DNA of 64,000 nt from an uncultured Gammaproteobacteria bacterium (GTDB lineage Bacteria > Patescibacteriota > Microgenomatia > Levybacterales > UBA12049). A model generated the notes under the pieces. The model worked only from the letters and a program-made list of their open reading frames with translations. It ran no database searches and had not been told where the DNA came from. Position numbers and translations under genes: made by a program. Location: positions 7,782 to 71,781 of the forward strand of contig CAZWXQ010000002.1 in NCBI GenBank assembly GCA_964637955.1. Direction: 5' to 3'. This document shows, piece by piece, positions 7,250 to 58,069 of the stretch (position 1 is its first letter; each line of letters opens with the position of its first letter).

Positions 7250-7301
7250 AATCTGCAATAGCTATTATTCGATTCTTGATTCAGTGAGCATAATTCGGGT
7301 T

Positions 7302-13283: not shown

Positions 13284-13287
13284 ATTT

Positions 13288-16026
13288 TTACAGTGGAAGC
13301 TGTGAACCTCCTTGATTTGCTACTTCTTTTAGCCAAAGCGTAAAGTCATCTTCATCAACTATTCCATTATCGTCTAAATCTGCATACGTTTGATAGTTGG
13401 GATTTACATCACAAGCTGATCTGTCCTGAGAGTAGATAGAGCAGCTCACTAAAATATTGTAGTCGTTTAAGTCTAAATTATTGTTTGATCTATCTATTTT
13501 ATTTATATCTCCAGTTATCATATCTAAAGTTTGGGCTGTTTTATTCATTCCCCGAGTTAAGGTAACAGATCCAGGTAGTTGACCTCTGAGAACCTGAGGG
13601 CCCTCAACGTAAACATTATAAATTCCTGATTGGAAATTATCGCCAAAACTTAGTGCTCCTTCAAACTTTCCACTTGCAGGATTATAGGTGACTGTATGGT
13701 CTTGAAATACATCTGCAGGGGTATTACTTGCGGCATTATACATTCTGACAGTTAAATTTCTGTTGGCACGTTCCGGATTTTTATTTCCACCGATTGGAGT
13801 TCTGGCAGTAGTTCCAATTCCGTCAATTCCAATAATTAAATTTAGATTTGTTTGCCCTGGAATACTAGTGATTGTTGGTGGATTACTAATTACGGGTTCC
13901 TCACTAATGGTTGGATCCTGGCTGATAACTGGGTCATTACTTATAACAGGATCTTGGCTAATGGTTGGATCAATAGCCTGTACATCATAAGTTACGTTCT
14001 CAGATATAAGAGGGCCATTTGTTCTTTGAATGTTAACTGTGAAGGTGGCGGGTCCATTCTCTGCATTATTAGGAGAGCTGACTGACATGGTAGTGCTTTT
14101 TGTATTTCCAGGTGCTATGTCTAGTGAATCTTTTTCAAGAGTAGAATCCCATCCGATAACACCAATTTTACTTATGTCAAAAGTGGCGTTATCACACTGC
14201 GCAGTATCATTATTTTTAATTTCAATGGTGAAATCTTTTTTGTCTCCTGCATTTCCACTTCTGGAATTTGGCTTTACATCTAGAGTTGGTCTATTTTTAA
14301 CACAAGTTGGAGCTGGGTCAGGAGTTGGATCTGTTCCGCCACCGCCTGATCCTCCTCCAGAAGGCTTAGTAGTCTTGTAGGCGTCTGTTTGGAAGTTATT
14401 GCCTTCATTCGATTCTGAGATATTTCCTACTGAATCAACAAAAACAGAAGCAATATAATCGCCCGCATTTGGCCTTGGCATATTGGTAAAGTGACTAGAT
14501 AAAGGTATCTCTTCATTCGGAGACACTACTTGCGTTACTGTCCAGGTTTTAGTAGCTCCACCGTCCCTATTAATTACTTTAACCTGAAAATCACCTGTGA
14601 TTTGTGCATTTCCAATATTTTTAATTTTTACAATTGGGTCAGATGTTCCTGTATCAACTCCGCCTGGAAATGTGAATGCTGAAACTACGAGATCTCTTGT
14701 GGCTGCTGGTTGTGTTTCTATCTTTTTAATTCCAAAATGAACAGTTCCACTCGCTCCTAAATCAATATTGGCTCCATCAGCAGTAGGATTGTTTGTTATG
14801 TTTTCTGAAGGAATTAAGTAATTTAGCTTTGTTGAGGCATAACCAGAAGGTATTAATAATTTTACTGTAATTTTATTTGCATTCGTTTTTGTTGTAACAG
14901 AATAATTATTTCCGTTCTTTGTGCTTGCGTCACCCGCAGCCTGCACAGTGTATGGGCTAGTGAAAAGTGCTTCAGTGCCATTTTTTTTACCATCATTCGC
15001 TGTTCCTCCTCCCGCACCATTATCTATAAAGACATATCCAGTGAATGAGAGTGTTTTCGTAGAACTAATTGGTGCGCATTCATTTGAAGAGTTGCAATTT
15101 CCAGATCTACATACTTGAGATTCCGGGGCAGAACAGTCTTGAGTTGTTGCTACCTCTCTGCAGTCAGTGTAATTTGGTTTTGTGGTCAGAGTTTTAGTTT
15201 GAGTTCCTGATCCTGGGCCACATGTTCCGCCATCTGGTTTAGGTATGCTGTTTTTTGCCTTACAAGTGCCTAATTTTGCACCAGCTGTGCAGTTCGGAAT
15301 AATAGAACATTTATGAGTATCTGTATTGCAAGTTTTGTCTGTTCCACAACCTCCGCAGGCTAAGCTAGTTCCACCAACGGTGAATGTTCCACAATAATTA
15401 TTTGCATTACAAAGACTATTTTTATATGTTGTTAAGTCTGAACATTTATCGGTGGTGGGTGCGCAGTATTTAAAATTTGGATTTGATGAACATTGGCTAT
15501 TAGAGGTACATTTTATGCAGTTAGTTGAAACATTTTCGTCGCAGTAAGATCTTAGACCAAATTGTACACTTCTGTCACCTCTGGTAATGTCAAAGCTGGT
15601 AGTTGTGCCTTTTTTTGTAACTGGCGAACTGGAAGGATTATCATAGAATATGTGAGTATAATTAAGTGTTCTATTTGGAGCAGTAATTTTTACTCTATAA
15701 TAATCTTCGCCAAGTTCATATAAGTCTGGGTCATTAGGTTTTAGGGTAATTGGAATTTCGAGTATAGATCCTGAACAGCTAGTCTGCGATGTTTTAGTGA
15801 GAGTTCTTGTTCCGCTTGCATCAGTTACCTGGACAGTAAAACTGCCATTATAGCAAGAATCTCCGTCTCTGCGACCATTAATATTGTAGTCGCTGTTACC
15901 GTTATCATCTACAAGCGTGGCAACATTAAGCCTGTAATTTGCTGCATGTGCTTTTTGAGGAATAATTAGAGATGCTAAGCTAAATAATAGAGGAAATAAC
16001 AATAGAGCAATAGTAATTTTTTTCAC
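13288..16026 (-). CDS. giant secreted adhesin-like protein: Cys-rich repeats, CARDB-like domain, DPxIS tandem repeats, C-terminal dockerin-like module
   Basis: Signal peptide MKKITIALLLFPLLFSLASLIIPQKAHA; >40 Cys in EGF-like spacing; CARDB-like DLVVSAFTFPGG...IKNIGNAQITGDFQVKV...VDSVGNISESNEGNN; C-terminal DLDDNGIVDEDD-FTLWLKEV (perfect Ca-loop) preceded by degenerate repeat DINKIDRSNNNLDLNDYNILV. Confidence 0.55.
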   Translation of the reverse strand: MKKITIALLLFPLLFSLASLIIPQKAHAANYRLNVATLVDDNGNSDYNINGRRDGDSCYNGSFTVQVTDASGTRTLTKTSQTSCSGSILEIPITLKPNDPDLYELGEDYYRVKITAPNRTLNYTHIFYDNPSSSPVTKKGTTTSFDITRGDRSVQFGLRSYCDENVSTNCIKCTSNSQCSSNPNFKYCAPTTDKCSDLTTYKNSLCNANNYCGTFTVGGTSLACGGCGTDKTCNTDTHKCSIIPNCTAGAKLGTCKAKNSIPKPDGGTCGPGSGTQTKTLTTKPNYTDCREVATTQDCSAPESQVCRSGNCNSSNECAPISSTKTLSFTGYVFIDNGAGGGTANDGKKNGTEALFTSPYTVQAAGDASTKNGNNYSVTTKTNANKITVKLLIPSGYASTKLNYLIPSENITNNPTADGANIDLGASGTVHFGIKKIETQPAATRDLVVSAFTFPGGVDTGTSDPIVKIKNIGNAQITGDFQVKVINRDGGATKTWTVTQVVSPNEEIPLSSHFTNMPRPNAGDYIASVFVDSVGNISESNEGNNFQTDAYKTTKPSGGGSGGGGTDPTPDPAPTCVKNRPTLDVKPNSRSGNAGDKKDFTIEIKNNDTAQCDNATFDISKIGVIGWDSTLEKDSLDIAPGNTKSTTMSVSSPNNAENGPATFTVNIQRTNGPLISENVTYDVQAIDPTISQDPVISNDPVISQDPTISEEPVISNPPTITSIPGQTNLNLIIGIDGIGTTARTPIGGNKNPERANRNLTVRMYNAASNTPADVFQDHTVTYNPASGKFEGALSFGDNFQSGIYNVYVEGPQVLRGQLPGSVTLTRGMNKTAQTLDMITGDINKIDRSNNNLDLNDYNILVSCSIYSQDRSACDVNPNYQTYADLDDNGIVDEDDFTLWLKEVANQGGSQLPL
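13864..13971 (-). repeat. six tandem 18-bp repeats encoding DP(T/V)IS(Q/N/E) inside the adhesin gene
   Basis: Visible tandem periodicity in DNA and protein (DPTISQ DPVISN DPVISQ DPTISE EPVISN PPTITS). Confidence 0.6.
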
Positions 16027-16134: not shown

Positions 16135-16704
16135 ATGATACTTTCAGATCGAGATATAAAAAAAGCATTAAAAGAAAAGAGGATTGTGATTTCACCGCTT
16201 CCTGATTTTAAAACTCAGCTTGGTAGTTGTTCGATAGATCTTAGGCTTGGAGATACTTTTAGAGTATTTGAACATAGTAAACACTCCTACATAGATCCTT
16301 CAAAAAAAGATTTTAGTAATGAAATTACGCGTGAGATAAAACTTAAGAAAAATGATTCATTTATGATGCAGCCAGGTGATTTTGTTCTCGCAGTTACTCT
16401 AGAAAAAGTTACAATCCCAGCTGATCTTATGGGTAGACTTGAGGGTCGTTCATCTCTTGGTCGCCTTGGAATTGTGGTTCATAGTACGGCTTCTATTTTC
16501 GATCCTGGTTGGGATGGGAATCCAGTTTTGGAGCTTGGAAATTTGGGACGCATGGCAGTGTCTCTTAAAGTAGGAATGAGAATTTGTGCTATGACTTTTG
16601 AAGAATTAACGAGCCCAGCTGAAACACCTTACACAAATAAAAAATTTGCCAAATATAAATTTCAGGACAGTCCAGTTGAATCAAGAATACATGAAGAGAA
16701 ATAA
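16135..16704 (+). CDS. dcd: dCTP deaminase
   Basis: Near-collinear similarity to Dcd (MILSDRDIKKAL, IDLRLG, GRSSLGRLG, FDPGWDGNPVLE, AKYKFQ C-terminus). Confidence 0.8.
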   Translation: MILSDRDIKKALKEKRIVISPLPDFKTQLGSCSIDLRLGDTFRVFEHSKHSYIDPSKKDFSNEITREIKLKKNDSFMMQPGDFVLAVTLEKVTIPADLMGRLEGRSSLGRLGIVVHSTASIFDPGWDGNPVLELGNLGRMAVSLKVGMRICAMTFEELTSPAETPYTNKKFAKYKFQDSPVESRIHEEK

Positions 16705-16795
16705 TTTTCAATTTGAAATTTTAAATTTTTAATGAAATCCAAATAATTTAATTTTAAATTTTGAAACATTGAAAACTAAGAATTAAAATTAAATC

Positions 16796-18230: not shown

Positions 18231-18304
18231 GAATGTCGCCGCTAGAGCGGGATCCCGATTGAAAACTATCATCGGGAAAAATTAAAAATTATAAATTGAA
18301 AATT
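18231..18304 (+). repeat. double-hairpin repeat element copy 1 (CCGCTAGAGCGG + CCCGATTGAAAACTATCATCGGG + AAAATTAAAAATT...)
   Basis: Near-identical to 57936-57990 (reverse orientation) and similar to 28951-28997; hairpins show compensatory changes. Confidence 0.6.
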
Positions 18305-28829: not shown

Positions 28830-28950
28830 ATGCCATTTATCAAATATGATTTATTATTTACCATTTAAATTTTCAATTTGAAATTTGAAATTTTAATCAA
28901 ATCTAAATGTTTAAACTTTTAAAATTAACTTATTGAAAATTTAATGTTAA

Positions 28951-28997
28951 CGTTAAAGCGGGATCCCGACTGAAAACTATCAGTGGGGAAAATTAAG
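28951..28997 (+). repeat. double-hairpin repeat element copy 2
   Basis: AGCGGGATCCCGACTGAAAACTATCAGTGGGGAAAATTAAG; same family as 18231 and 57936. Confidence 0.55.
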
Positions 28998-29022
28998 AAT
29001 CTTGAAAATTTAAAATTAATTT

Positions 29023-30591: not shown

Positions 30592-30723
30592 AACAAATTT
30601 TCAATTTTAAATTCACAATTTTCAATGAAAGAATCAATTTATAAATTTTAAACATTTAGAATTGAAATAAAATTTCAAAGTTCAAATTTAAAATTAGTCT
30701 TTTTACAAGTTGTAATGAAAAAA

Positions 30724-33490: not shown

Positions 33491-34372
33491 ATGAAAAATA
33501 TTACCCTTGAAGAATTATTGGAAGCTGGATGTCATTTTGGACATCAAGTTTCTCGTAGTAATCCAAAATCTAGAGATTTCGTTTTTGAAGCTCGTGATGG
33601 AATTCATATTATCGATCTCGCAAAAACTAAAGAAGGACTTGAAGAAGCTGGAAAGTTCATTAAGTCAGTTGCACAAAACCCATCCACAAACATCGTTATC
33701 GTAGGAACTAAAAGACAAACTCAAGAAGTATTAAAAAAAGAATTAGAGAGAGTTACGAAAGAAATCTCTGGTGAAAATGGAATTTTCTATGTTACTAATA
33801 AATGGATAGGTGGACTTCTAACCAACTTCTCAGAAGTGTCAAAAAACTTTAAAAAACTCAGTGACCTTATTCATAACCTAAACACACCAAGCGCGCAAGA
33901 AGGATATACCAAAAAAGAAATCGGCGGATGGAGCAAGGAAAGAGATAAGCTCGAATCATTTTATGGTGGAGTTTATAAGCTTAATAAAGTTCCTGATGTT
34001 TTATTTATTATCGATTCACATCTTGAGCATTTGGCTGTAGACGAAGCAAATAAAATGAAAGTTCCAACTGTAGCAATTACTGATACTAACTCTGACCCAG
34101 CACTCGTAACATATCCAATTCCAGCAAATGATGATGCTGTGGGGAGTTTGGAACTTATTATTGGTTATATTCTTGATGCTTGGAAAGAGGGAAGAAATTC
34201 TGTAAAAATAGAAAAGCCTAAAGAAGAAAAAAAGCCAGAAGTTAATAAAGTTAAAGCCGGCGCATCAGCTCAAGAAGAGTTAGCGCAAGCACTTAAAGAA
34301 GAAAAGAAGAAGCAAGAACCAGGAATCAAGAATAAAGAAGAGGTTGAGAAGAAAATAGGAAAGAAGGATTAA
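33491..34372 (+). CDS. rpsB: 30S ribosomal protein S2 with Lys/Glu-rich C-terminal extension
   Basis: LEAGCHFGHQ, IHIIDL signatures of S2. Confidence 0.9.
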   Translation: MKNITLEELLEAGCHFGHQVSRSNPKSRDFVFEARDGIHIIDLAKTKEGLEEAGKFIKSVAQNPSTNIVIVGTKRQTQEVLKKELERVTKEISGENGIFYVTNKWIGGLLTNFSEVSKNFKKLSDLIHNLNTPSAQEGYTKKEIGGWSKERDKLESFYGGVYKLNKVPDVLFIIDSHLEHLAVDEANKMKVPTVAITDTNSDPALVTYPIPANDDAVGSLELIIGYILDAWKEGRNSVKIEKPKEEKKPEVNKVKAGASAQEELAQALKEEKKKQEPGIKNKEEVEKKIGKKD

Positions 34373-34475
34373 TTTTCAATTTTAAATTAGAAATTTTTAA
34401 TCAAATCTAAATTTTTAACTATCTAATATTTAAAATTCATTGAAAATTAAAAACTAAAAATTTTAAAATAATATT

Positions 34476-35599: not shown

Positions 35600-36403
35600 A
35601 TGAGTTTCGAACAAGGTCCAAATAATAAATTTACTCAAGCAGCTGATGCATTAAAAGCATCTCAAATAACTGCTGAACATAATAAGAGGTCTGCAGCAGA
35701 GGCTGCTAGGGAACTAGAAAGAACAAGAAAAGACAGAATAATTGCAGAAAGACAGGCTAATATTGATAGGCTTTTGGAGAATGGAGTATTGTCTTTATTT
35801 GTTGAAGCTGCAAAGGGAATTAGAGAAATATATCCTGATGTTCAAGTTCACCTGACTGTTCCTGATGGTGATGAATTCAGCTCCTCGCCATTAAAAGTTC
35901 CCTCAATGGGAGTTGCGCTTTTATTTGATTTTAAAAGAGAGTCGAAAGGAAATGTTTCTTATACTCGTATAGGAGCTACAGACTATGGAAAAGGAGCTGG
36001 TTTTCAGCTAAATTATGGTAGCGAGCTAGCTGTTGCAGGTGAAAGGCCATTTAACTCAACTCGGAAAGTAGTTAAATTAGAACCAATAGTTGAAGTTTCT
36101 TCTTTAATTTATCAAGAGAAGAATTTAGAACCAAAAGCTCTTGTATCAAAACTGCTTCACAAGCCAACAAAGATTCCGCAGGAAAGTGTCCCAATGCCTG
36201 GCTATGATTATTTTGAATATACAGATGAAGGATTAGTTGAGGCTGCAGATGTAGTTGCTGATTTGATTGAAAGTGGTGATGCAAGTAAATTAAGAGCCAC
36301 TTCTTTTTCACCTAGGCATGGTTTAACGGGTATGAAAGATCTTCTTATGCATGATAGTGCAACTAAAGGATTTTATAGTCATATTTCAGTTCCCTTAGAG
36401 TAA
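35600..36403 (+). CDS. hypothetical protein
   Basis: ORF track only. Confidence 0.35.
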   Translation: MSFEQGPNNKFTQAADALKASQITAEHNKRSAAEAARELERTRKDRIIAERQANIDRLLENGVLSLFVEAAKGIREIYPDVQVHLTVPDGDEFSSSPLKVPSMGVALLFDFKRESKGNVSYTRIGATDYGKGAGFQLNYGSELAVAGERPFNSTRKVVKLEPIVEVSSLIYQEKNLEPKALVSKLLHKPTKIPQESVPMPGYDYFEYTDEGLVEAADVVADLIESGDASKLRATSFSPRHGLTGMKDLLMHDSATKGFYSHISVPLE

Positions 36404-36473: not shown

Positions 36474-37583
36474 ATGCTGCTTACTATTATTGTCTTCTTA
36501 GTCATCCTCACTGTTCTTGTTCTCATTCATGAGCTTGGTCATTTTATTACTGCAAAAATTTTTGGAATTAAAGTAGAAGAATTTGGGTTGGGATTTCCGC
36601 CTAGGGTTTTTGGAAAGAAAAAAGGCGAGACTCTTTATTCGATAAATGCACTTCCTATTGGGGGTTTTGTAAAACTTTATGGTGAAGATGATGCTGGTGG
36701 AGGAAAAATATCTAAAGGAAAAAAAATAGAAAAAGATCCAGATTTAGATCGAGCATTTTTTGCAAAGCCAATTTGGCAAAGAATTGTTGTGGTGACTGCA
36801 GGGGTAGCCATGAATTTTCTTTTGGCAGTAATTATAGCGACCTATTTATTTACCTCTCAGGGGCTCCCTACAGACAATAAAAGCGTACTTATTACTCAAG
36901 TTGCTAAGAATACGCCTGCTGCCGTAGCAGGACTTAGGGCTGGAGATGCAATCGTAAGTATTGATGGACATGAAGTAGCGGATCCATCAAGCCTTATTGC
37001 TGTAACTAAAGATAAACTAGGAAAAGAAGTAACACTTATTGTGCTTCGAGAAGGAAATGAGATTCCACTTAAGATTACCCCTCGAGTAAATGCGCCAAAA
37101 GGAGAAGGAGCGATGGGTGTTGCGATAGAGCAAAATATTACTTTCCAGAAGTATCCATTTCCTCAGAGCATCTATTACGGCACTAAGCAAGCTGCCCATG
37201 ATTCAGTTCTTGTGGTAACAGGATTTGTGGACATGATTAAGACAATATTTACTAAGCAAACAATCCCAGAAGGAGTAGCTGGTCCTGTTGGAATGGCTCA
37301 ACTCACTGGTGAATTTGTAAAAATAGGACCTGATGCGGTTTTGTCGCTCGTTTATATGCTTAGTTTGAGCTTGGCGGTTCTTAATATTCTTCCAATTCCA
37401 GCGCTTGATGGGGGAAGACTGTTCTTTATTTTGATTGAGTTATTTACCAGACGAAAGGTAAATGCCAAATATGAAGCTTATGCACACATGGTGGGAATCG
37501 TGGTACTTCTTACTTTCCTTGTTTTTATATCTTATAAAGATATTTTGAGAATCATTAGTGGACAGTCAATTATTCCGCAGTAA
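36474..37583 (+). CDS. rseP: RIP metalloprotease RseP (M50 site-2 protease with PDZ domain)
   Basis: HELGHFITAK (HExxH), PDZ-like middle, LNILPIPALDGG M50 motif. Confidence 0.8.
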   Translation: MLLTIIVFLVILTVLVLIHELGHFITAKIFGIKVEEFGLGFPPRVFGKKKGETLYSINALPIGGFVKLYGEDDAGGGKISKGKKIEKDPDLDRAFFAKPIWQRIVVVTAGVAMNFLLAVIIATYLFTSQGLPTDNKSVLITQVAKNTPAAVAGLRAGDAIVSIDGHEVADPSSLIAVTKDKLGKEVTLIVLREGNEIPLKITPRVNAPKGEGAMGVAIEQNITFQKYPFPQSIYYGTKQAAHDSVLVVTGFVDMIKTIFTKQTIPEGVAGPVGMAQLTGEFVKIGPDAVLSLVYMLSLSLAVLNILPIPALDGGRLFFILIELFTRRKVNAKYEAYAHMVGIVVLLTFLVFISYKDILRIISGQSIIPQ

Positions 37584-37658
37584 TAAATTATTCTTCGTGT
37601 GAATTAAATGAGTCGAGAAGTTATCGACTTCGCTCGAACAATAAATTTAAAATAAATT

Positions 37659-38066
37659 ATGAGAGTTCAAAAAACAGAAGAAGAGTGGAAAAAAATTCTT
37701 ACTCCTGAAGAATATGAAGTTCTAAGAAATAAAGGGACTGAGGCTCGTGGTGGAAAATATTTTAATTCTGACGAAGATGGAATGTACTCATGTGCTGCGT
37801 GCGGCCATGAACTGTTCTCGAGCGACGCCAAGTTTGAATTAGATAAAGATGATCCAAATTATGGATGGCCTAGTTTTGATCAGCCCGCAAATCGCGAAAA
37901 TGTTGAACTAGTTGATGATAACAGGTACGGAATGCATAGAACTGAAGTGATTTGTAAAAATTGTGGATCTCATCTCGGACATCTATTTGATGATGGGCCG
38001 GTAGAAACAACTGGAGAGCATTATTGCATAAATTCCTGCGCTCTTAAGTTTCATCCCGAAAAATAA
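37659..38066 (+). CDS. msrB: peptide methionine-(R)-S-oxide reductase
   Basis: Two CxxC pairs and CINSCAL/GWPSF MsrB signature. Confidence 0.85.
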   Translation: MRVQKTEEEWKKILTPEEYEVLRNKGTEARGGKYFNSDEDGMYSCAACGHELFSSDAKFELDKDDPNYGWPSFDQPANRENVELVDDNRYGMHRTEVICKNCGSHLGHLFDDGPVETTGEHYCINSCALKFHPEK

Positions 38067-38165
38067 CCCTCCCAATAGATATAAAACTACAGAGAGGGTA
38101 TTATCTTTCTAATTAATTAGCAAGATAAAATGATTTTTTCTTATGAATAAAATAAAAGCCATGTA

Positions 38166-38194
38166 TTAACAATGTAATATTCCTCTGATATACT
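38166..38194 (+). promoter_or_regulatory. sigma70-like promoter TTAACA-N17-TATACT, 7 nt before pgl ATG (leaderless)
   Basis: TTAACA 38166-38171, TATACT 38189-38194, ATG 38202. Confidence 0.45.
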
Positions 38195-38201
38195 TTCTCA
38201 C

Positions 38202-38939
38202 ATGGATAGGCAGAGCCTAATAGGTTTAAATCATTATAAAAATAAGGATAATATTCTTGTGATTGAGACTGCTACGGCCCAAAAAGCCAATGAAACAGTT
38301 TCTGAAATTCTTGAAAAATATTCTGATTTTAAAACAGCATTATTTCTTTCAGGAGGAAGTACTCCAAAAAAACTTTATGAACAATTTGCAAATGAAAAGA
38401 AGCTAAAAGCTGGAGCAGTGGGGCAAATTGATGAGAGGTTCGGCTCAAAAAATCATAAGAAATCAAATGAAGTTATGATCTCAAACACAGGTTTGATTCA
38501 ATATTTTGAAGATCAAAATATCCGTTTTTATCCAATCTTGCAAGAAGATTTGGATATTGAGGATACCACTCGTCAGTATGATGAGGCTTTGCGTTTTATA
38601 ATTAAATATTTTCCAAAAAGTGTAGGAATCTTAGGAATTGGTGAAGATGGGCATACGGCTGGAATTCCTGCAATCCCAGAAATAGCTCTAAAAATGCTTG
38701 ATGATCAAAGTGAGCTTGTGGATTTTTATGAAGCCGATAAGTATGGAGCAAGAATTACTATGAATTTTCATGCACTTTCAATGCTGGATCTGATTATAGT
38801 TTTAGCTTTAGGTCAGGAAAAAAGAGAAACGCTCTCACAAATGTTTAAAGAAGGAATTGTTGATGATTTTCCTGCAAGATATTATTTACGTCCTGGAATT
38901 GCGGAGAAAACAATAATAATTACTGATCAGATCGTGTAG
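38202..38939 (+). CDS. pgl: 6-phosphogluconolactonase
   Basis: LSGGSTP and GIGEDGHTAGIP motifs of Pgl/NagB fold; pathway context with zwf and gnd. Confidence 0.7.
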   Translation: MDRQSLIGLNHYKNKDNILVIETATAQKANETVSEILEKYSDFKTALFLSGGSTPKKLYEQFANEKKLKAGAVGQIDERFGSKNHKKSNEVMISNTGLIQYFEDQNIRFYPILQEDLDIEDTTRQYDEALRFIIKYFPKSVGILGIGEDGHTAGIPAIPEIALKMLDDQSELVDFYEADKYGARITMNFHALSMLDLIIVLALGQEKRETLSQMFKEGIVDDFPARYYLRPGIAEKTIIITDQIV

Positions 38940-38968
38940 GTTTAATCTTAAGTCTAAATATTTGTTTT

Positions 38969-39529
38969 TTACTCTTCTGTTAGTGAAGCTGTAAGTAAAT
39001 TTCCAACTATGCTTATTCCGTAGGAGACCCATAAGGGATGATTCTTTTTTTGTGATGCAACTTTTTTTGGTTGATCAGTTTCAGGGTCTAAAACAGTATG
39101 ATGGCCAAAATATGTAATTTTATTTATCCCTGGATTAATATTTAATACTTGCAAATCATTTCCGGTACTTGCTTGTACTTCTTCAATTTGACCGCTTTCT
39201 CCTCGTCTGAATCTTAGTTCCCAAAGAGTTCTTCTGGGCTCAGTTTCATTTGGATAGAGTGGGCTAAGTCCGTTTAAATTCACCATAAAAATTGCTTCCT
39301 GGAAATTAGTTCCGGGAGCAATATAAGCCTCTTTTAAAAGTTCAAGTTGTTGTTTTCCCCAGTCTGCGGTAACCTCAGGATCCATTTCTAAATCTTCATG
39401 AATTACATCCCAAGGTCTTAATAATTGTTGAATTGTATATTCAGGAAGTTTGGTAATTAGTCTTTTAGAGTCTAGTAAGCCTAAGTCTTCTTGCGTGGCG
39501 CCTCCGCCTGGTAATCTATCTGTTGACAT
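38969..39529 (-). CDS. hypothetical protein with N-terminal LPGGGATQEDL motif
   Basis: ORF track; shares N-terminal ~25-aa motif with gene at 40040-41134; own promoter. Confidence 0.4.
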   Translation of the reverse strand: MSTDRLPGGGATQEDLGLLDSKRLITKLPEYTIQQLLRPWDVIHEDLEMDPEVTADWGKQQLELLKEAYIAPGTNFQEAIFMVNLNGLSPLYPNETEPRRTLWELRFRRGESGQIEEVQASTGNDLQVLNINPGINKITYFGHHTVLDPETDQPKKVASQKKNHPLWVSYGISIVGNLLTASLTEE

Positions 39530-39536
39530 AAAGGGT

Positions 39537-39565
39537 ACTATACTCTTTGAGGTTTATATAGTCAA
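39537..39565 (-). promoter_or_regulatory. promoter TTGACT-N17-TATAGT, 7 nt before ATG (leaderless)
   Basis: Minus-strand reading TCTTGACTATATAAACCTCAAAGAGTATAGTACCCTTTATG. Confidence 0.55.
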
Positions 39566-40002
39566 GAATGAGCAGGGTTATTTGACAGGGATCTAATTTC
39601 TTCGAGCGCCTGGGAAATTCTTTCAGCTGCTATATCTGTATTTGTTTCAGGAAGTCCTGTTTCTAGGTTTAACCATTGAACCTGAGAGGGAATTGTGGCT
39701 TTCACTTCCTTACCATCAACCTCTTTTTTCCCAAGTCTGCTTTGAACTATGCTAAAAACTTCAAGAGTTCCATCATGATGTGTAAATCTTGAGAATCTTA
39801 CACCTTTTCTGTTTAAAATATATGGATCCACTAGCCAGCCAGAGTCTGACTTAGGATCGCCAATTACTGCGCTTGTTGCGCTTCTTAATGCAGGAAATGC
39901 CCGAATGGTTCGGATTCCATTTCTTACAACTTTTCCTCTTTGATAATCTGATAAGACAATTGGCTCTCTTTGAATTTCGCTATGTGGATTTTCTGCTGAC
40001 AT
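39562..40002 (-). CDS. hypothetical protein (146 aa)
   Basis: ORF track; own promoter. Confidence 0.4.
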   Translation of the reverse strand: MSAENPHSEIQREPIVLSDYQRGKVVRNGIRTIRAFPALRSATSAVIGDPKSDSGWLVDPYILNRKGVRFSRFTHHDGTLEVFSIVQSRLGKKEVDGKEVKATIPSQVQWLNLETGLPETNTDIAAERISQALEEIRSLSNNPAHS

Positions 40003-40010
40003 AATGGGTT

Positions 40011-40039
40011 AATATACTCTTTAAGGCTTAAGCTGTCAA
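40011..40039 (-). promoter_or_regulatory. promoter TTGACA-N17-TATATT, 8 nt before ATG (leaderless)
   Basis: Minus-strand reading ATTGACAGCTTAAGCCTTAAAGAGTATATTAACCCATTATG. Confidence 0.55.
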
Positions 40040-41134
40040 TTATTGTTCAAGCATTGGGAAGTGTGCGTCTAATAGATCATCAAGTCTACTTAAAGCTACA
40101 TCTCCTGTAACAGGTTTTAATGGATCTGAGTCAACGCCCAAAATCCATGAATCTACAAAGGGTCCCTTAAAAGCCAAATCGTCCCATTCTGGGCGAGGAA
40201 TCGTGTCAAAGCCAAAGCCAATAGAATGGTAGTCATGTTCGTCAGGCCCATCGATAGATAAACTTACCCTCCATAAATCAGGATATATATTATCACCATT
40301 ATAAATTGTTAATTTTATTCCATCCCTTAATTGTAATTCAGCAAATGAGATGAATACATTTGGATTTAAAATTCCATCAATTCTAGCTTTTCTTAGAAGT
40401 AGAATGTCATGTTCAACTTTCATGGAATCCTTTTTTGCCTGGATAGCATCTGATTCTTCTTTCTTTTTTCTCTCCATCTCATCGGCAGCTTCTTGTCCAA
40501 ATAGATAAACTGCACCTTCGTAATCAGACATTCTTCCGACTACGGCTTTGGTTTTTGAAGGATCATCTGGAAAGTCCTTTTTCGGTATAGACTCCATCAT
40601 TGCAACTCCACCTCTTTTCGGTGGCTTGGGTTGGCCAAGGCGAATATCCAGATCACGACCGATTTTTTCATCAATTGTTAAATCCCTTTGCCAAGTAGAG
40701 TCACCAATAAGTGATTCAGTTCTTGCTGCGAAACCCTCTCGATTTCCATTCGCATCTAGCCTTACTCCGAAGTTTGCAGATATTTTTCGTATACCGTTTT
40801 CTCTGTCGGGTGTTATCCGTTCTTTATCTTCTAGATTCATTGTCCAAATATCTGGATTTGTAGGATCAGGAATGTATCTTAATATTGTATCATCGTCCGA
40901 TGATTCAGGATCAGATCTTAAATGAAATTCAGCTGATAGAACACGTGAAGGATCTTGGAAAAGTTTAGTTCTTAATAAATTTATTCTCGCAATAAATTCT
41001 TCACCCAATATGGGTTCAGTTCTCAATCTGTCCTTTCTGCTTCTTAAGTCAGTTGCAAAATCCTTAGAGCCTAATACTGATTGCGCGTCATCAGGTGTCG
41101 CTCCGCCACCTGGAACTGCATCTTTTCTTGTCAT
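40040..41134 (-). CDS. hypothetical protein (364 aa) with N-terminal VPGGGATPDD motif
   Basis: ORF track; N-terminal motif shared with 38969-39529 gene; own promoter. Confidence 0.4.
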   Translation of the reverse strand: MTRKDAVPGGGATPDDAQSVLGSKDFATDLRSRKDRLRTEPILGEEFIARINLLRTKLFQDPSRVLSAEFHLRSDPESSDDDTILRYIPDPTNPDIWTMNLEDKERITPDRENGIRKISANFGVRLDANGNREGFAARTESLIGDSTWQRDLTIDEKIGRDLDIRLGQPKPPKRGGVAMMESIPKKDFPDDPSKTKAVVGRMSDYEGAVYLFGQEAADEMERKKKEESDAIQAKKDSMKVEHDILLLRKARIDGILNPNVFISFAELQLRDGIKLTIYNGDNIYPDLWRVSLSIDGPDEHDYHSIGFGFDTIPRPEWDDLAFKGPFVDSWILGVDSDPLKPVTGDVALSRLDDLLDAHFPMLEQ

Positions 41135-41142
41135 AAGAGCGT

Positions 41143-41171
41143 AATATACTCTTTGAAGTTTGGTTAGTCAA
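41143..41171 (-). promoter_or_regulatory. promoter TTGACT-N17-TATATT, 8 nt before ATG (leaderless); overlaps divergent zwf promoter
   Basis: Minus-strand reading TCTTGACTAACCAAACTTCAAAGAGTATATTACGCTCTTATG. Confidence 0.55.
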
Positions 41172-41181
41172 GAACTATAAT
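41153..41181 (+). promoter_or_regulatory. zwf promoter TTGAAG-N17-TATAAT, 7 nt before ATG at 41189
   Basis: TTGAAG 41153-41158, TATAAT 41176-41181 (overlaps ORF-track start 41180). Confidence 0.45.
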
Positions 41182-41188
41182 GGTTGTT

Positions 41189-42640
41189 ATGTCAGAATCT
41201 CCGCAGGTATTTAAAGATCTCAAAAGCCCATTTATTTTGGTAATCTTCGGAGCTACAGGAGATCTTGCTCAAAACAAATTAATTCCTGGACTTTTTTCTC
41301 TATATTTAAATAATCAGCTTCCAACAGAATTTTATATTATTGGTTTTTCAAGGCGCAAACTTTCGCACTTCGAATTTCATGAGCATTTAAAAAAAGAACA
41401 AACACACGAAAAATGGGTGGAATTTACTTCACACATTCTTTATCAATCAGGAAGTTTTGAAAAGGAAGAAGGATACTTGGAGTTAGGTAAACAGCTCGTC
41501 GAAATAGATGAGAAATTGGGTGCTTGTGTCGCGAGATTTTTCTACTTGGCAACTCCACCAGATCATTATGAAAGCATTTTGGAAAAATTGGTCTCCACGA
41601 AACTTTCAGAAGGTTGTTCAGATGAAGATCATAGCAGTAAGTGGACTCGCGTAATTCTTGAGAAGCCATTTGGAAAAGATCTTGAGACCGCAAGGCAACT
41701 TGATTTGCGACTTTCCGAATACTTTGAGGAAAAACAGATTTTTCGCGTAGATCATTATCTTGGAAAAGAAACTGTTCAAAATATGCTGGCATTTAGATTT
41801 GCCAATGGAATTTTTGAGCCTGTTTGGAATAACACTCTTATTGATCATGTTCAGATTAGCTGGGGAGAGACAAAAGGAATTGGTAATAGGGGAAATTTTT
41901 TTGAGGGGATAGGGATACTTCGAGATTTTCTTCAAAATCATGTTATGCAGCTCATAGCCGCTGTAGCTATGGAGCAGCCGAGAAGCTTTACAAAAGAAGA
42001 TCTTCGTGACGCAAGAGCAGAAGTTATAAAATCTATAAGACTGGATGGGAATTCACAAGTAGTTAGAGGTCAGTACGATGGTTATAAATCAGAAGAAGAT
42101 GTCGATCCCAATTCAACTACGGAGACTTTTGTGGCAACTAAATTATTTATTGATACTCCTAGGTTTGAAGGAGTACCTTTTTATTTGCGAGTGGGTAAAA
42201 AAATGCCAAAAGATTTAGTTGAAATTTCAGTAGTTTTTGTTCAGACATGTCATATTTTATTTAAAGAGTTCGGATGCCCCGAGATCGGAAACGTTATCAC
42301 ATTTAGAATCCAACCGAATGAAGGAATTTCGCTTCGATTCATCGCTAAAAAGCCTGGAGCCAAGCTAGGGCTCGAATCGGTGGACATGAAATTTAATTAT
42401 AAAGAGAGTTTTGGTACACGTGGCCTTGAAGCTTATGAAAAGATTTTATTAGATATCTTTTCAGGAGATCAGATGTTATTTAATAGGTCTGATGAGCTCG
42501 ATAGCAGTTGGAGTTTAATTTCAGAAGTCCTAAGCAAATGGGAGACAGCAGCAGAGCCCGTAAAAGTTTATGCTCCTGGAACCTGGGGTCCAGAAGAGGC
42601 AAATAAATTAATTGAAAATGACGGCCGGTATTGGTTATAA
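41189..42640 (+). CDS. zwf: glucose-6-phosphate 1-dehydrogenase
   Basis: FGATGDLA NADP motif, RVDHYLGKE active-site motif; start 41189 (MSESPQ) preferred over 41180 which lies in the -10 box. Confidence 0.85.
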   Translation: MSESPQVFKDLKSPFILVIFGATGDLAQNKLIPGLFSLYLNNQLPTEFYIIGFSRRKLSHFEFHEHLKKEQTHEKWVEFTSHILYQSGSFEKEEGYLELGKQLVEIDEKLGACVARFFYLATPPDHYESILEKLVSTKLSEGCSDEDHSSKWTRVILEKPFGKDLETARQLDLRLSEYFEEKQIFRVDHYLGKETVQNMLAFRFANGIFEPVWNNTLIDHVQISWGETKGIGNRGNFFEGIGILRDFLQNHVMQLIAAVAMEQPRSFTKEDLRDARAEVIKSIRLDGNSQVVRGQYDGYKSEEDVDPNSTTETFVATKLFIDTPRFEGVPFYLRVGKKMPKDLVEISVVFVQTCHILFKEFGCPEIGNVITFRIQPNEGISLRFIAKKPGAKLGLESVDMKFNYKESFGTRGLEAYEKILLDIFSGDQMLFNRSDELDSSWSLISEVLSKWETAAEPVKVYAPGTWGPEEANKLIENDGRYWL

Positions 42641-42795
42641 AAAGATTTATGAATTATGATTTACGATTTATGAATATTAATGTAGAATATTAAATAATTC
42701 TAAGATTTGAATTTCTTATTTACATTTATGGTTACGATAAGTTTTGATGATTTCAATCCATGCGTCGCTAAAGCTTTGCAGGATTTCAGATTTTT

Positions 42796-43149
42796 ATGAA
42801 TACAATTACATTTGATGACTTCAAAAAAATAAAAATCCTGATGGGGAAGATTACAGCGTGTGAAAGAGTAGAAAATGCTGATAAACTTCTTAAGCTTCAG
42901 ATTGACTTCGGTCCTATTGATGAAGGATCTGAAGAGCGAATGACTAGGCAGATTGTCTCTGGAATCGCAGAAAGTTATTCGCCAGAAGAGTTGGTAGGTA
43001 AAACCTTACCATTTATTGTAAATTTAGAATATCGAAAATTCAAAGGTGAAGAGTCTCAAGGAATGCTTATGGCTACGGGCACAGGAAGTGACAATGTGGT
43101 ACTTCTCGAACCAAACCGCGAAATCGCTCCAGGAAGTGAAGTTATTTAG
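42796..43149 (+). CDS. tRNA-binding domain protein (CsaA/Trbp111/EMAP-II-like)
   Basis: KLLKLQIDFG...RQIVSGI...LVGKTLPFIVNLEYRKFKGEESQGMLM OB-fold tRNA-binding signature. Confidence 0.65.
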   Translation: MNTITFDDFKKIKILMGKITACERVENADKLLKLQIDFGPIDEGSEERMTRQIVSGIAESYSPEELVGKTLPFIVNLEYRKFKGEESQGMLMATGTGSDNVVLLEPNREIAPGSEVI

Positions 43150-44714: not shown

Positions 44715-45392
44715 TTAAATAGATGATGAGGGGATTCTGGCTATAGCTTTTGTCTGGTCAAATGGTTCGAGTCCAATTTGTCTAACGGCCAGTCCTTGAT
44801 CATCATTTATGTCTGTCATCAATCCTTTTGATCCACTAATAGTTAGCATGTCAGATATGAGAATTACGGAGGTTTGTCTTTGAGGCTCAGGAATTTCTAC
44901 TTGGAGCCCACTAACAGTTTCAAAAAAGTCTGTAGTCCAAAAGTATTCAGGTTTTGGAGAATCAGATGGCTGGGTTCTTCTGAAGAAAAGTACTTTTGAG
45001 GGGTCAATCCCTTTTTCGCGTATATAATCTAAATTAATTATTGCTCCAGTTTCAGATCTTCTTCTTACACCATTTTGATGAAGTGATGCAGGATCATCGA
45101 TCGTAGCTTCTCCTGAGAAAAATCCCGCGTTACGTTTCAAGTCATTAAAAGCTGAAGAGTTTTTTATAATTTCTTTTAAATTGGTTTCATTCATCCCTGC
45201 ACTTACTAGTGCTTCAAAGAGTTTTGCATCTTCAAAATACATCGCTACTCTTGGATCTAAATCAACGCCTTCTTGAATGAGCTCATCGATTAGTCTCATT
45301 GCAGAAGGACTTTTTCTTTCTTTCGCGCCAATTAACATTCCGCCCGGGATTTTTGGAGGTAAATCACCACTTTCCATAATTGGATTATACAT
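44715..45392 (-). CDS. hypothetical protein
   Basis: ORF track only. Confidence 0.35.
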   Translation of the reverse strand: MYNPIMESGDLPPKIPGGMLIGAKERKSPSAMRLIDELIQEGVDLDPRVAMYFEDAKLFEALVSAGMNETNLKEIIKNSSAFNDLKRNAGFFSGEATIDDPASLHQNGVRRRSETGAIINLDYIREKGIDPSKVLFFRRTQPSDSPKPEYFWTTDFFETVSGLQVEIPEPQRQTSVILISDMLTISGSKGLMTDINDDQGLAVRQIGLEPFDQTKAIARIPSSSI

Positions 45393-45414: not shown

Positions 45415-46341
45415 ATGCAAATTGGATTTATTGGTCTTGGAAAAATGGGAAGTAGGATGGCGGGAAAGCTTTTGAATGAATACGATTTGATCGTTTGGAA
45501 TCGAAATGCAGAAGCAATTTCAAATTTCAAATTTCAAACTTCAAATTCAGGACAAGAAAATAAAGTTAATTTTGCTCAAACGATTCAGGAATTAATTAAT
45601 AAATTAGAAAAACCAAGAATTATATGGATTATGGTAAGTCATCAGGCAGTTGATGAAGTTCTTTCAGAGGTTAAGAAATATGTTTCCCCAGGAGATGTTG
45701 TGATTGACGGTGGAAATTCAAATTATAAAGATACAGATAAAAGGTTTGAAGAATTTGAAAAACTTGGCATTAGCTTTCTTGGAGCTGGAACGAGTGGGGG
45801 AATCAAGGCTTCGGAAAATGGATTTCCATTTATGGTGGGGGGAAGTCGTAAAGGTTATGATTTGATTTCTCCAGTTTTGGATAGTTTGTCCAAGCCTGGT
45901 GGTGGGCATGCATATTTTGGGAAAGGCGGAGCAGGGCATTTCGTAAAAATGATCCACAACGGTGTGGAATATGGAATGATGCAGAGTATAGGCGAAGGAT
46001 TTGAGGTTTTGGAAAAATCAGAATATGAAATAAATTTATCTGAAGTGGCAAGTCTTTGGACAAAAGGAACAATTGTCTCTGGATTTCTAATGGATCGATC
46101 TGCGGAAATGCTTGCTCAGGATCCCAAGCTTGAATCATTTAAAGGTGCAGTTGCCAGAAGTGGAGAAGGCGATTGGACTCTGGAGGTCGCCAGGGAAGAA
46201 AAAGTAATGGTTCCGTCGATGGGTGTGGCTGTGGATTACAGAAAAAAGTCTGAAGAAAGTGTTCAGCTCCAAAATTCCATGACTGCAAGAGTATTAAATG
46301 CGCTTCGAAAAAGCTTCGGCGGCCACGAGATTAAGAAGTAG
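45415..46341 (+). CDS. gnd: 6-phosphogluconate dehydrogenase (decarboxylating), short ~300-aa form
   Basis: MQIGFIGLGKMGSRMA NAD(P)-binding N-terminus, VIDGGNSNYKDT, GAGTSGG motifs. Confidence 0.75.
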   Translation: MQIGFIGLGKMGSRMAGKLLNEYDLIVWNRNAEAISNFKFQTSNSGQENKVNFAQTIQELINKLEKPRIIWIMVSHQAVDEVLSEVKKYVSPGDVVIDGGNSNYKDTDKRFEEFEKLGISFLGAGTSGGIKASENGFPFMVGGSRKGYDLISPVLDSLSKPGGGHAYFGKGGAGHFVKMIHNGVEYGMMQSIGEGFEVLEKSEYEINLSEVASLWTKGTIVSGFLMDRSAEMLAQDPKLESFKGAVARSGEGDWTLEVAREEKVMVPSMGVAVDYRKKSEESVQLQNSMTARVLNALRKSFGGHEIKK

Positions 46342-46699: not shown

Positions 46700-46862
46700 A
46701 AATATGAGATTATACTCTGGTTTTAAGAATTATGCTATACTCTTCTTTAGCTTCTGGCTAAAGAATTTGAAATTTTTATTAAAATTAAAATGTTTTAATT
46801 TTTAAACATTAAATTATTGAAAATTCAATGAAAATTAAAAATTATAAATTGAAAATTTAATT

Positions 46863-52641: not shown

Positions 52642-53541
52642 ATGAAAATAATTGTTACACATAATGCTCCAGATTTAGATGCGGTAACTTCTGTTTGGCT
52701 AATTAGAAGATATTTGCCAGGGTGGAATGATGCACAAGTTAAATTCGTCCCTGCAGGACAAAGACTTGAAGGAGCAAAACCTGGTCCAGAAGTAGAAAGT
52801 GTGATTGAAATAATAGGTGAGAATGAAGTAATCCATGTTGATACTGGACTTGGACCGCTTGATCATCATCAAACAAAAAGTGATCAGATTTGCGGAACAA
52901 CACTTACTTGGGACTACGTAAGAGAGAATAGTGATAGTTTTAAGCATCCAGAAGATTCAGATAAGATAGTTGAAAAAGAAGAAGCCATCTCCAGAATAGT
53001 CCAAGTGGTGGTTGAAGATGATCATTTTAAAGAAGTATTCTGGCCTAATCCGAATGCTGATTATTTTGAGTTTTTAGTGCACTCAGTTATTGATGGAATC
53101 AAGCTTGCAAAGCCAGGAGATGATGAATATTGCGTTAATTTTTCAAATGAATGCTTGGATTATATTCTTCATAATTTTGAAAATAAAATTTGGGCGGAAA
53201 AAGAGATTGAAGAAAATTCTACTCAGTTTGAGAGTCATTGGGGGAAAGGAATGGGACTTGAAACTATAAATGATGATGTCATAAAGCTTGCACAAAAATC
53301 AGGCTTTGCAGTAGTGGTACGAAAAGATCCAAGAAAAGGATATGTCAGGATTAAGGCAAGTCCAGCATTTGAGGTAGATCTTACAAATACTTACGAGCAG
53401 CTTAAGAAAATGGATCCAGATGCAACTTGGTTTCTTCATGTGGGAAAAAAAATGCTTTTAAACGGAACCCCAAAAAATCCTAAGATGGTTCCAACCAAGT
53501 TAAGTCTTGATGCTATAATATCTATACTCAAAAAAAATTAA
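52642..53541 (+). CDS. DHH-family phosphoesterase (NrnA-like)
   Basis: THNAPDLDAVTS (motif I/II) and GLGPLDHHQ (DHH); start 52642 (MKIIVTH) chosen to avoid 110-nt overlap of ORF-track start 52474. Confidence 0.6.
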   Translation: MKIIVTHNAPDLDAVTSVWLIRRYLPGWNDAQVKFVPAGQRLEGAKPGPEVESVIEIIGENEVIHVDTGLGPLDHHQTKSDQICGTTLTWDYVRENSDSFKHPEDSDKIVEKEEAISRIVQVVVEDDHFKEVFWPNPNADYFEFLVHSVIDGIKLAKPGDDEYCVNFSNECLDYILHNFENKIWAEKEIEENSTQFESHWGKGMGLETINDDVIKLAQKSGFAVVVRKDPRKGYVRIKASPAFEVDLTNTYEQLKKMDPDATWFLHVGKKMLLNGTPKNPKMVPTKLSLDAIISILKKN

Positions 53542-53559
53542 AATTAAAAATTTAAAATT

Positions 53560-57034: not shown

Positions 57035-57934
57035 ATGTTAATTTTTTCCGGAGGATCAAATAAAAAACTAGCTGAAGCTGTTGTGAAAGAGCTTGGCTTA
57101 GAATTGGGAAAGCTTGAAATAATTACTTTCCCTGATAATGAAAATAGAGTTAGAGTTCTGGATAAAGTTCTAGGCGAGGATGTGGTTGTAGTTCAGTCGA
57201 CCGGAATATCTCCAAATCTTTATTACATGGAGCTATTTTTTATCCTCGATTCTCTAAAAAGGAGTGGGGCGAAAACAGTTACTCTTGTGATTCCGTATCT
57301 AGGTTATCAAAGACAAGATCATATTTTCCGTCATGGCGAATCAGTTTCACTTGAGGTGATAATAAAGCTTCTTGAGAGCTTGGGAATTACCAAAGTGATA
57401 TCATTTGATTTTCACTCAATTAAAATTCCGGTTTTATTTAATACTCCAGTTAAGCATCTGACTGCGCTTGAAATCTTTGCTGATAAAATAAATAAAGAAA
57501 CTAAAGATGATTTAGTTTTGGTTTCTCCTGACATGGGAGGGATTGCTAGGATTAAAAAACTCTCAGAGCTTACGAATGGGCTTCCATTTATCTCAATTGA
57601 GAAAAATAGAGATTTGGATACTGGGGTAATAGAATCTGCAAAAATAAATGGGGAAATTAAAAAGCGGGCAATTATTGTGGACGATGTGGTTTCAACTGGG
57701 AGAACTCTAATCGCAGCCTGCGACTTACTTATGAATAATGGAGTAAAAGAAGTTACAGTTATGGCAACACACGCTATTTTTGCAAAAACAGCACCGCTTG
57801 AATTATCAAGATCAGCTATTAAAACTGTTACAGTAACTGATACTCTCAGACTTCCCAAAAATAGAACATTTGAAAAACTTGAGGTGTTATCAGTCGCAAA
57901 GATGATAGCTAAAGAATTAAGAGAAAATTTTTAA
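57035..57934 (+). CDS. prs: ribose-phosphate pyrophosphokinase
   Basis: IIVDDVVSTGRT PRPP-binding motif, LVSPDMGG. Confidence 0.85.
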   Translation: MLIFSGGSNKKLAEAVVKELGLELGKLEIITFPDNENRVRVLDKVLGEDVVVVQSTGISPNLYYMELFFILDSLKRSGAKTVTLVIPYLGYQRQDHIFRHGESVSLEVIIKLLESLGITKVISFDFHSIKIPVLFNTPVKHLTALEIFADKINKETKDDLVLVSPDMGGIARIKKLSELTNGLPFISIEKNRDLDTGVIESAKINGEIKKRAIIVDDVVSTGRTLIAACDLLMNNGVKEVTVMATHAIFAKTAPLELSRSAIKTVTVTDTLRLPKNRTFEKLEVLSVAKMIAKELRENF

Positions 57935-57935
57935 T

Positions 57936-57990
57936 TTTTCCCGCTGATAGTTTTCAGTCGGGATTCCGCTTAAGCGGTGACATTGAATTT
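57936..57990 (-). repeat. double-hairpin repeat element copy 3 (reverse orientation)
   Basis: Reverse complement CAATGTCACCGCTTAAGCGGAATCCCGACTGAAAACTATCAGCGGGAAAAATTAAAAATT matches copy 1 almost base-for-base. Confidence 0.6.
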
Positions 57991-58069
57991 TCAATTACTT
58001 AATGTTTATAAATTAAAACATTGGAGCTTCATTAAAAGTTTAAAATTTTAAATTGAAAATTACATATTC

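Follow-up and report, generated by a model that had tools for sequence, protein, structure and literature searches.

Why would three neighbouring genes that match no known protein family each be preceded by an almost identical promoter? The question is raised by a locus in a 64,000-nucleotide stretch of contig CAZWXQ010000002.1 (hereafter, the window). There, gene A (40040–41134, 364 amino acids), gene B (39562–40002, 146 amino acids, basic) and gene C (38969–39529, 186 amino acids) follow one another as open reading frames (ORFs) on the minus strand. This island lies between two plus-strand genes, zwf, which encodes glucose-6-phosphate dehydrogenase (41189–42640), and pgl, of the 6-phosphogluconolactonase family (38202–38939). 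A first-pass annotation, made from the sequence, had described the promoters and a shared N-terminal motif. What that annotation missed is the main feature of the locus: A, B and C occupy a place where gene content is hypervariable.

A hypervariable slot between zwf and pgl

We compared the locus with about 15 related contigs from Candidatus Levyibacteriota and relatives. These were obtained as the encoding contigs of homologs and through DNA-pattern scans of genomes and metagenomes, and were screened locally. When genome contigs were scanned with a relaxed pattern of the promoter module described below, the matches listed were mostly chance single ones; local tblastn then gave at least six related loci. 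Contigs L023 and L094 are labelled Candidatus Levyibacteriota, and several others come from 0.1-µm groundwater fractions. The flanks in the window were assigned from the Pfam domains G6PD_N and G6PD_C, found on an identical contig, for zwf, the N-terminus of which agrees with its homologs, and from the Pfam domain Glucosamine_iso together with synteny for pgl.

On every contig with identifiable flanks, the same arrangement was found, with a divergent zwf, the island and a convergent pgl; msrB and rseP are often located past pgl. The slot holds from one to at least four genes per contig, distributed by phmmer clustering over at least ten sequence families. Read from zwf to pgl, the content is A-B-C in the window, A-BL1-CL1 in L001, A-BL3 in L003, XY-B in L005, g1-CL1 in both L012 and L094, g1-g2-BL1-CL1 in L114 and C-?-CL1 in L138. 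In addition, L023 and L126 contain C only, L125 contains A only, and L127 and L134 contain unique genes.

The flanks are far more stable than what they enclose. Flanking genes are 80–96% identical, whereas identity of the first island gene falls to as little as 33%. In the comparison of the window with L125, identity is 96% for rseP, 85% for pgl and 83% for zwf, versus only 33% for A; the nonsynonymous divergence (dN) is 0.78 for A versus 0.10 for pgl. The ratio of nonsynonymous to synonymous divergence (dN/dS) is 0.16–0.20 for A and B (0.19 for B), compared to 0.05–0.08 for the flanks. Such values indicate that the island genes are real and under purifying selection. Overall, the locus combines one slot, conserved flanks and different genes in relatives, as expected of a replacement flexible genomic island.

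In L005, a 287-residue paralog of the island gene XY (6602–7465; N-terminus MTDKGVPTPEEA) lies just outside the island, between a gene for a tRNA-binding-domain protein and the 3′ end of zwf. Its promoter is leaderless (TTGAAG-N17-TATACT, then 8 nt to the ATG) and has no AAAGAG. In the window, a 267-residue Cys-free protein without a Pfam match is encoded between frr and rseP (35600–36403, plus strand), behind TTGACA-N17-TAATAT and 8 nt to the ATG. The frr–rseP interval is empty in L005, which carries instead an ORF of 745 residues of unknown function between msrB and rseP. The frr–rseP region looks like a second variable slot.

The zwf-island-pgl locus of Levyibacteriota type is also present in four contigs of metagenome-assembled genomes labelled as uncultured Gammaproteobacteria (L012, L014, L079 and L114). 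Their GC content is 0.36–0.38 and their zwf or pgl is 56–70% identical to that of the window. These bins are probably mislabelled or contaminated.

Promoter modules at the island junctions

In the window, each island gene has a module of its own on the minus strand. Upstream of A (41143–41171), the module consists of a -35 hexamer TTGACT (41166–41171), the box AAAGAG (41149–41154) and a -10 hexamer TATATT (41143–41148), which ends 8 nt before the ATG at 41134. That of B (40011–40039) has TTGACA (40034–40039), AAAGAG (40017–40022) and TATATT (40011–40016), with 8 nt to the ATG at 40002. That of C (39537–39565) has TTGACT (39560–39565), AAAGAG (39543–39548) and TATAGT (39537–39542), with 7 nt to the ATG at 39529. 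Written out, the modules are TTGACT-aaccaaacttc-AAAGAG-TATATT (A), TTGACA-gcttaagcctt-AAAGAG-TATATT (B) and TTGACT-atataaacctc-AAAGAG-TATAGT (C). They share the form TTGACW-N11-AAAGAG-TATAKT, in which the 17-nt spacer ends in AAAGAG and 7–8 nt precede the ATG; the 11 variable nucleotides of the spacer are unlike between the three copies.

With up to two mismatches allowed, the full module pattern has three matches in the window, all at A, B and C (0.03 expected; none of 100 shuffles reaches three). A repeat finder recovered the modules independently as direct repeats of 45–51 nt. All three sites agree with the sigma-70 hexamers (-35 TTGACA and -10 TATAAT, 16–18 nt apart) at 10–11 of 12 positions, with a 17-nt spacer, and they are the top-scoring sigma-70-like sites within 37500–43000. 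The intergenic gaps are short, 37 nt between A and B and 32 nt between B and C, and contain nothing but promoter sequence. The -35 hexamer of B directly abuts the stop codon of A, and the TGA stop codon of B sits within the -35 hexamer of C. No terminator-like site was found between the three genes.

At A, B and C, the 7–8 nt from the -10 hexamer to the start codon, with no Shine-Dalgarno (SD) sequence within 4–18 nt, correspond to leaderless genes. AAAGAG was considered as a distant SD site for read-through transcripts and rejected: it ends 14–15 nt before the ATG and is a poor match for pairing to a typical anti-SD sequence. The architecture is ordinary in this genome. Among genes that open a transcription unit, defined as those whose upstream neighbour is either divergent or, if on the same strand, more than 15 nt away (n = 48 in the window), 29 have a TANNNT hexamer ending 5–9 nt before the start, versus 1 of 19 tightly packed genes (Fisher p = 2.6e-5). 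At a control offset of 22–26 nt, such a hexamer is found in 5 of 67 genes, and SD-like sequences precede only 11 of the 67 genes in the window. Since this spacing recurs at 29 of 48 unit-initial genes, one leaderless promoter per uncoupled gene is the habit of this genome. What is special to the island is the near-perfect promoter consensus together with the shared spacer.

The first-pass annotation was thus right that each of the three genes has a near-identical promoter of its own, these being the sole three matches in the window. It had also presented leaderless organization as a special mark of these genes, which does not hold. The region is indeed richer in GC than its surroundings, as it had stated, by a marginal amount (0.37–0.40 for the island versus a window mean of 0.36). 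High expression of A, B and C, another of its suggestions, is a prediction from the consensus match only.

Collection of 32 non-redundant modules from the related contigs gave the consensus cCTTGACA-gcctaaacttC-AAAGAG-TATATT, followed by 7–8 nt (once 11 nt) and the ATG. Of the zwf-adjacent modules, ten had not been selected for AAAGAG, and all ten carry it exactly; so do about 5 of 14 internal modules, the remainder having one to four changes. Across genomes with zwf genes of only 50–65% identity, the internal junction TTGACAGCCTAAACTTCAAAGAGTATATT hardly differs, and TTGACAGCCTAAACTTC is common to internal junctions across genomes in any reading frame of the upstream stop codon. Because the junction is kept whatever this frame, its conservation operates at the DNA level. 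Between orthologous loci, the synonymous divergence (dS) of 0.8–2.1 means that neutral sites are heavily changed or saturated, while -35, AAAGAG and -10 persist; neutral sequence would not have retained these elements. Hence, a junction of about 30–45 nt is kept by selection, and the coding bodies are replaced or diverge fast.

On two metagenome contigs (L139, 1199–1228; L140, 179–208), a TTGACA...AAAGAGTATATT module is followed by tagagtctgttttttttt and not by an ATG.

On the zwf side, the promoter of A is interlaced with that of zwf. The latter (41153–41181, plus strand) has a -35 hexamer TTGAAG (41153–41158) and a -10 hexamer TATAAT (41176–41181), 7 nt before the ATG at 41189. This start (MSESPQVF...) is the true one according to the homologs; the ORF start at 41180 that a mechanical prediction gives falls inside the -10 hexamer of zwf itself. 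Along the plus strand, the elements come in the order A -10 (41143–41148), 4 nt, zwf -35 (41153–41158), 7 nt, A -35 (41166–41171), 4 nt, zwf -10 (41176–41181), 7 nt and the zwf ATG. The overlap had been described before as face to face; its geometry, including the 4 nt between elements, was correct, while the promoters are divergent and interdigitated, not convergent. The reverse complement of TATAAT (ATTATA) upstream of the island -35 is kept in relatives. With predicted start points of A and zwf about 54 bp apart, simultaneous occupancy of both promoters by two polymerases would be unlikely.

The island proteins

Profile searches placed none of the three proteins in a well-known housekeeping family. 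Searches of Pfam, NCBIfam and PADLOC with A, B and C, and of PDB sequence profiles with the A family, returned no match past threshold. PHROGs yielded only two sub-threshold matches, to families of unknown function (best E = 0.0014), and no significant Pfam match was obtained for ten island proteins of relatives. In a word-indexed search of 5.8 billion proteins, A had two relatives (70% and 64% identity) with conserved synteny, and C had none. A full HMMER profile search of 1.84 billion representatives added three further remote relatives of A. B has two relatives (79% and 71% identity), one of them in the same slot in L005, and relatives of C are the sole or first island gene in L023, L126 and L138. 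No A-family relative was found on viral contigs, and the 41 viral contigs that match the module pattern encode no island family. Searches of the literature on leaderless genes in bacteria of the candidate phyla radiation (CPR) and on Levyibacteria yielded nothing relevant to the zwf–pgl island. The earlier view that these are unknown, lineage-specific genes agrees with the scarcity of relatives and the lack of database matches.

The PGGGAT motif occupies residues 8–13 of A (41096–41113, minus strand), within a segment conserved from D5 to A17 in sequence comparison, and residues 7–12 of C (39494–39511). It is missing from B. Its presence in both the 364- and the 186-residue protein, already pointed out in the first-pass annotation, is confirmed, and within the window it occurs nowhere else. 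When the window and nine related loci were translated in all six frames, PG.G[AST][TR] appeared only 6–7 residues after the start Met of island genes, so that the motif does recur at their N-termini and nowhere else in the translations scanned. Looser forms open further families (MATDKTTPGTGTPEE, MTADRKPGVAPTP, MANDRTIPGTETP and MTADQLPGQGATS); four to five families bear M-x-x-D-x-x-P-G-x-G-(A/S)-T-P at a fixed N-terminal position. Between A and C, the codons for Gly, Ala and Thr within the motif do not agree in their third positions, which indicates that it is the peptide that is under selection. Over about 57 N-terminal columns, comprising the motif and the helix that follows it, A can be aligned with C (hhalign probability 79%).

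Beyond the motif, A contains an alpha-beta5-alpha domain, not described before, that has been duplicated in tandem. Two copies of about 120 residues, linked by a long charged helix, cover residues 40–172 (40619–41017, minus strand) and 235–364 (40043–40432, minus strand) and align with each other (hhalign probability 94%). In an alignment of 12 rows (A3), L, W and F-G are invariant. The hidden Markov model (HMM) built from it, which delimits the first copy, matches every A-family protein twice. AlphaFold applied to full-length A with three sequences gave an unusable model (predicted local distance difference test score, pLDDT, 44), and the domain-level alignment A3 was used instead. The resulting model of the second copy (m2dec377c49ce; pLDDT 82.9, predicted template modelling score 0.77) shows a helix, a five-stranded antiparallel meander and a helix. 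Foldseek comparison of this model yielded nothing significant in the PDB (best E = 0.24), and the comparison with BFVD gave no significant match either (best E = 0.08). The A3 profile also matches the BL1 family over 114 columns (probability 82%); this sister family has one copy of the domain.

Island proteins are hydrophilic and mostly acidic, with a grand average of hydropathy of -0.5 to -0.6. A, B and C contain no Cys, and the island proteins together only 3 Cys in 6678 residues, versus 0.75% in the window proteome. Cys depletion was rejected as a sign of export: in this genome, signal-bearing proteins are Cys-rich (1.7%) and soluble proteins contain 0.56%. The N-termini (MTRKDAVPGGGATPDDAQ, MSTDRLPGGGATQEDL and MSAENPHSEIQREP) are hydrophilic and show no h-region, lipobox Cys or RR motif of Sec, lipoprotein or Tat signals. 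A double-glycine leader as in substrates of C39-peptidase ABC exporters (15–30 residues ending in GG, with conserved hydrophobic positions) is likewise not recognizable, since only 8–10 residues precede GGG and a hydrophobic pattern is absent; among the island neighbours in the annotated part of the window, neither an ABC nor a C39 gene was found. C ends in a hydrophobic tail that might have served as a membrane anchor; this idea was dropped because the tail is not conserved in the C family. Without any hydrophobic signal, the earlier suggestion of secreted or structural effector-like proteins is not supported.

Readings of the locus

We lean, with restrained confidence, towards a replacement-type flexible island of promoter-bearing cassettes, which encodes soluble, lineage-specific proteins, several of them sharing an N-terminal recognition peptide, with no support for secretion. 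The island between the divergent zwf and the convergent pgl of Levyibacteriota-like CPR bacteria would be an array of cassettes, each with its own sigma-70-type promoter from which transcription would start at or beside the ATG. As the island gaps hold only promoter sequence, leaderless mRNAs appear to be the rule and SD sequences are rare, an uncoupled gene would need its own promoter, because translation here would depend on a 5′-terminal AUG. RNA polymerases at the first module and at the zwf promoter would probably compete, and a factor that binds to the invariant AAAGAG/CTCTTT box would act on the A and the zwf promoter alike. The N-terminal peptide could be a short docking or processing motif for a common partner. 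Diversifying selection may underlie the turnover, or alleles may be replaced when recombination runs through the conserved flanks and junctions; the pattern of turnover suggests the former, perhaps as in proteins that meet phage, hosts or competitors.

Other readings account for part of these data. If the proteins were secreted or surface-exposed, effector-like or structural, with the PGGGAT peptide as a new export or maturation signal, one would understand why the motif keeps a fixed position in otherwise different proteins, why the locus is hypervariable, as typical of exposed structures, and why the promoters match the consensus so strongly. We consider this unlikely: the hydrophilic N-termini have neither h-region nor lipobox nor twin-arginine, no secretion genes adjoin the island, either in the window or over 20 kb of L005, the proteins are nearly Cys-free in a genome with 1.7% Cys in its signal-bearing proteins, and B has no motif at all. 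Accessory or regulatory partners of the oxidative pentose-phosphate enzymes, that is, OpcA analogues co-regulated with zwf through the shared promoter region, are a less probable proposal still. The position between zwf and pgl never varies on contigs with identifiable flanks, the island promoter interdigitates with that of zwf exactly where AAAGAG is invariant, and msrB and gnd are nearby. On the other hand, no Pfam OpcA domain (OpcA_G6PD_assem or OpcA_G6PD_C) was detected at E ≤ 1 for A, B and C or at E ≤ 0.1 for ten proteins of relatives, non-homologous families occupy the slot in different genomes, and distant A-family members lie away from zwf. Moreover, for the binding partner of a conserved enzyme, a drop to 33% identity would not be expected when zwf itself remains at 83%.

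A mobile cassette system, in which the 30–45-nt junction would be a site-specific recombination site as well as a promoter (integron, pdif or rAID-type), would explain why the same families occur in different order and number between genomes, and why TTGACAGCCTAAACTTCAAAGAGTATATT remains nearly identical across genomes with 50–65% identical zwf, whatever the upstream stop frame. It is nevertheless improbable, as no recombinase or integrase gene stands beside the island in the window or in L005, no inverted-repeat arms were found in 38900–41250, no relatives are on viral contigs, and homologous recombination through the conserved flanks and junctions explains the pattern equally well. Very little speaks for a mere trace of recent tandem duplication without special function, even though common ancestry links A, C and BL1 and the modules form direct repeats. 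The coding bodies of A, B and C have diverged beyond sequence detection, the variable 11 nt of the spacer are unlike between copies, and with dS of at least 0.8 between orthologous loci the hexamers and AAAGAG are still there in 32 copies.

Several points weigh against the cassette-island reading that we favour. Two distant A-family members, P0009 and P0010, are located outside the zwf–pgl slot, behind leaderless TTGACA-N17-TATAYT promoters with no AAAGAG box. B and several other families do not carry the N-terminal motif, the partner of which is putative, and most island families have no detectable mutual homology. As AAAGAG is exact next to zwf and in only about 5 of 14 internal modules, the constraint on it may belong to zwf regulation and not to the island genes. 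For part of the contig sample, the module itself served as the search pattern, so that the sample is biased. Promoter activity, leaderless starts and high expression are all predicted from the DNA sequence. A bolder extension of the cassette-island reading is a long shot: the TTGACAGCCTAAACTTCAAAGAGTATATT junction would be both promoter and exchange point of a CPR-specific cassette system, and D-x-x-P-G-G-G-A-T-P would serve as a new signal for targeting or processing, by which diverse cargo domains reach a single partner, for instance an unrecognised export or host-contact machine of episymbionts.

Among known systems, the concept of replacement flexible genomic islands, reportedly due to Rodriguez-Valera and colleagues, describes one slot with conserved flanks and different content in related strains. 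The locus shares with them the fixed position between zwf and pgl, flanks that are 80–96% identical and a content that is non-homologous or strongly diverged. It differs by its small size (0.6–2.2 kb), by the absence of glycosyltransferase or surface-polysaccharide genes and by a promoter junction for each gene. Variable multigene families with a conserved 5′ expression module are known from Mycoplasma (vlp/vsa) and Borrelia (vsp/vlp). Tandem genes, near-identical promoters, a conserved N-terminal segment and divergent bodies are common to them and to the island; in contrast to those antigens, the island proteins have no signal peptide, no lipobox Cys and no typical internal repeats, and homopolymer tracts that could support phase variation are missing from the promoter spacer (only A3–A4).

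OpcA, an assembly or activator protein of glucose-6-phosphate dehydrogenase, is encoded between zwf and pgl in Actinobacteria and cyanobacteria. The likeness lies in gene position next to zwf and pgl, whereas the island has no OpcA Pfam domains, is divergent from zwf and contains different families per genome. The PE/PPE families of mycobacteria combine a fixed-position N-terminal motif with a variable remainder, and the island proteins resemble them in having a short motif fixed relative to the start Met (P-G at residues 7–8) in a diversifying multigene family. However, PE/PPE domain homology and a nearby ESX locus are missing, and the family is far smaller. Integrons, rAID-1 and pdif arrays also assemble short genes with conserved junctions in combinations that differ between genomes, but here there is no adjacent integrase or Xer-type recombinase, palindromic attC- or dif-like arms are lacking and the cassettes bear their own promoters. 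In its general type the locus is familiar, since both flexible islands and multigene families that share a conserved 5′ expression module are known. Its novelty lies in the occurrence in CPR bacteria, in promoter junctions whose architecture is tied to leaderless translation, in the interlacing with zwf and in the protein families themselves.

Most CPR bacteria have not been cultivated, and much of their gene content is without known function. A promoter junction of 29 nt, found in one fixed slot, provides a compact marker with which the fastest-evolving genes of one CPR lineage can be pulled from metagenomes, and such genes are the likeliest to reflect interaction with hosts, phage or competitors. 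The locus also illustrates a gene organization adapted to leaderless translation, with a promoter per uncoupled gene and a -35 hexamer overlapping the upstream stop codon. The interdigitated zwf/island promoter pair and the invariant AAAGAG form a testable regulatory unit that links a central NADPH-producing enzyme to variable genes. Studies of structure and interaction gain two new subjects, the alpha-beta5-alpha domain and the PGGGAT peptide.

Three further observations concern the rest of the window. An AT-rich motif, AAATTGAAAATT, has 22 copies with at most one mismatch, versus 6.1 ± 2.6 in shuffles, none of 100 of which attains this number. Most copies fall between genes, and they lie on both strands (for example at 16703–16761, 18279–18304, 28868–29017, 30596–30695, 34371–34382, 46832–46857, 53541–53559 and 57926–58061); the motif contains a -35-like core, TTGAAA. 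On the minus strand, 9828–16026 comprises three genes for signal- or anchor-bearing proteins, one with CARDB/NEW3 (912 residues, 26 Cys), one with cohesin (210 residues) and one with a C-terminal dockerin (940 residues), which points to a cohesin–dockerin cell-surface assembly in a CPR genome. Finally, a conserved protein of unknown function (44715–45392, minus strand) is encoded divergently from gnd (45415–46341), the third oxidative pentose-phosphate gene, and L005 has a homolog at the same place (227 residues). A TATAAT inside its annotated first codons suggests that the leaderless start is the second ATG (45377), giving MESGDLPPKIPGG; this predicted N-terminus, of the form D-x-x-P..PGG, bears a faint resemblance to the island motif.

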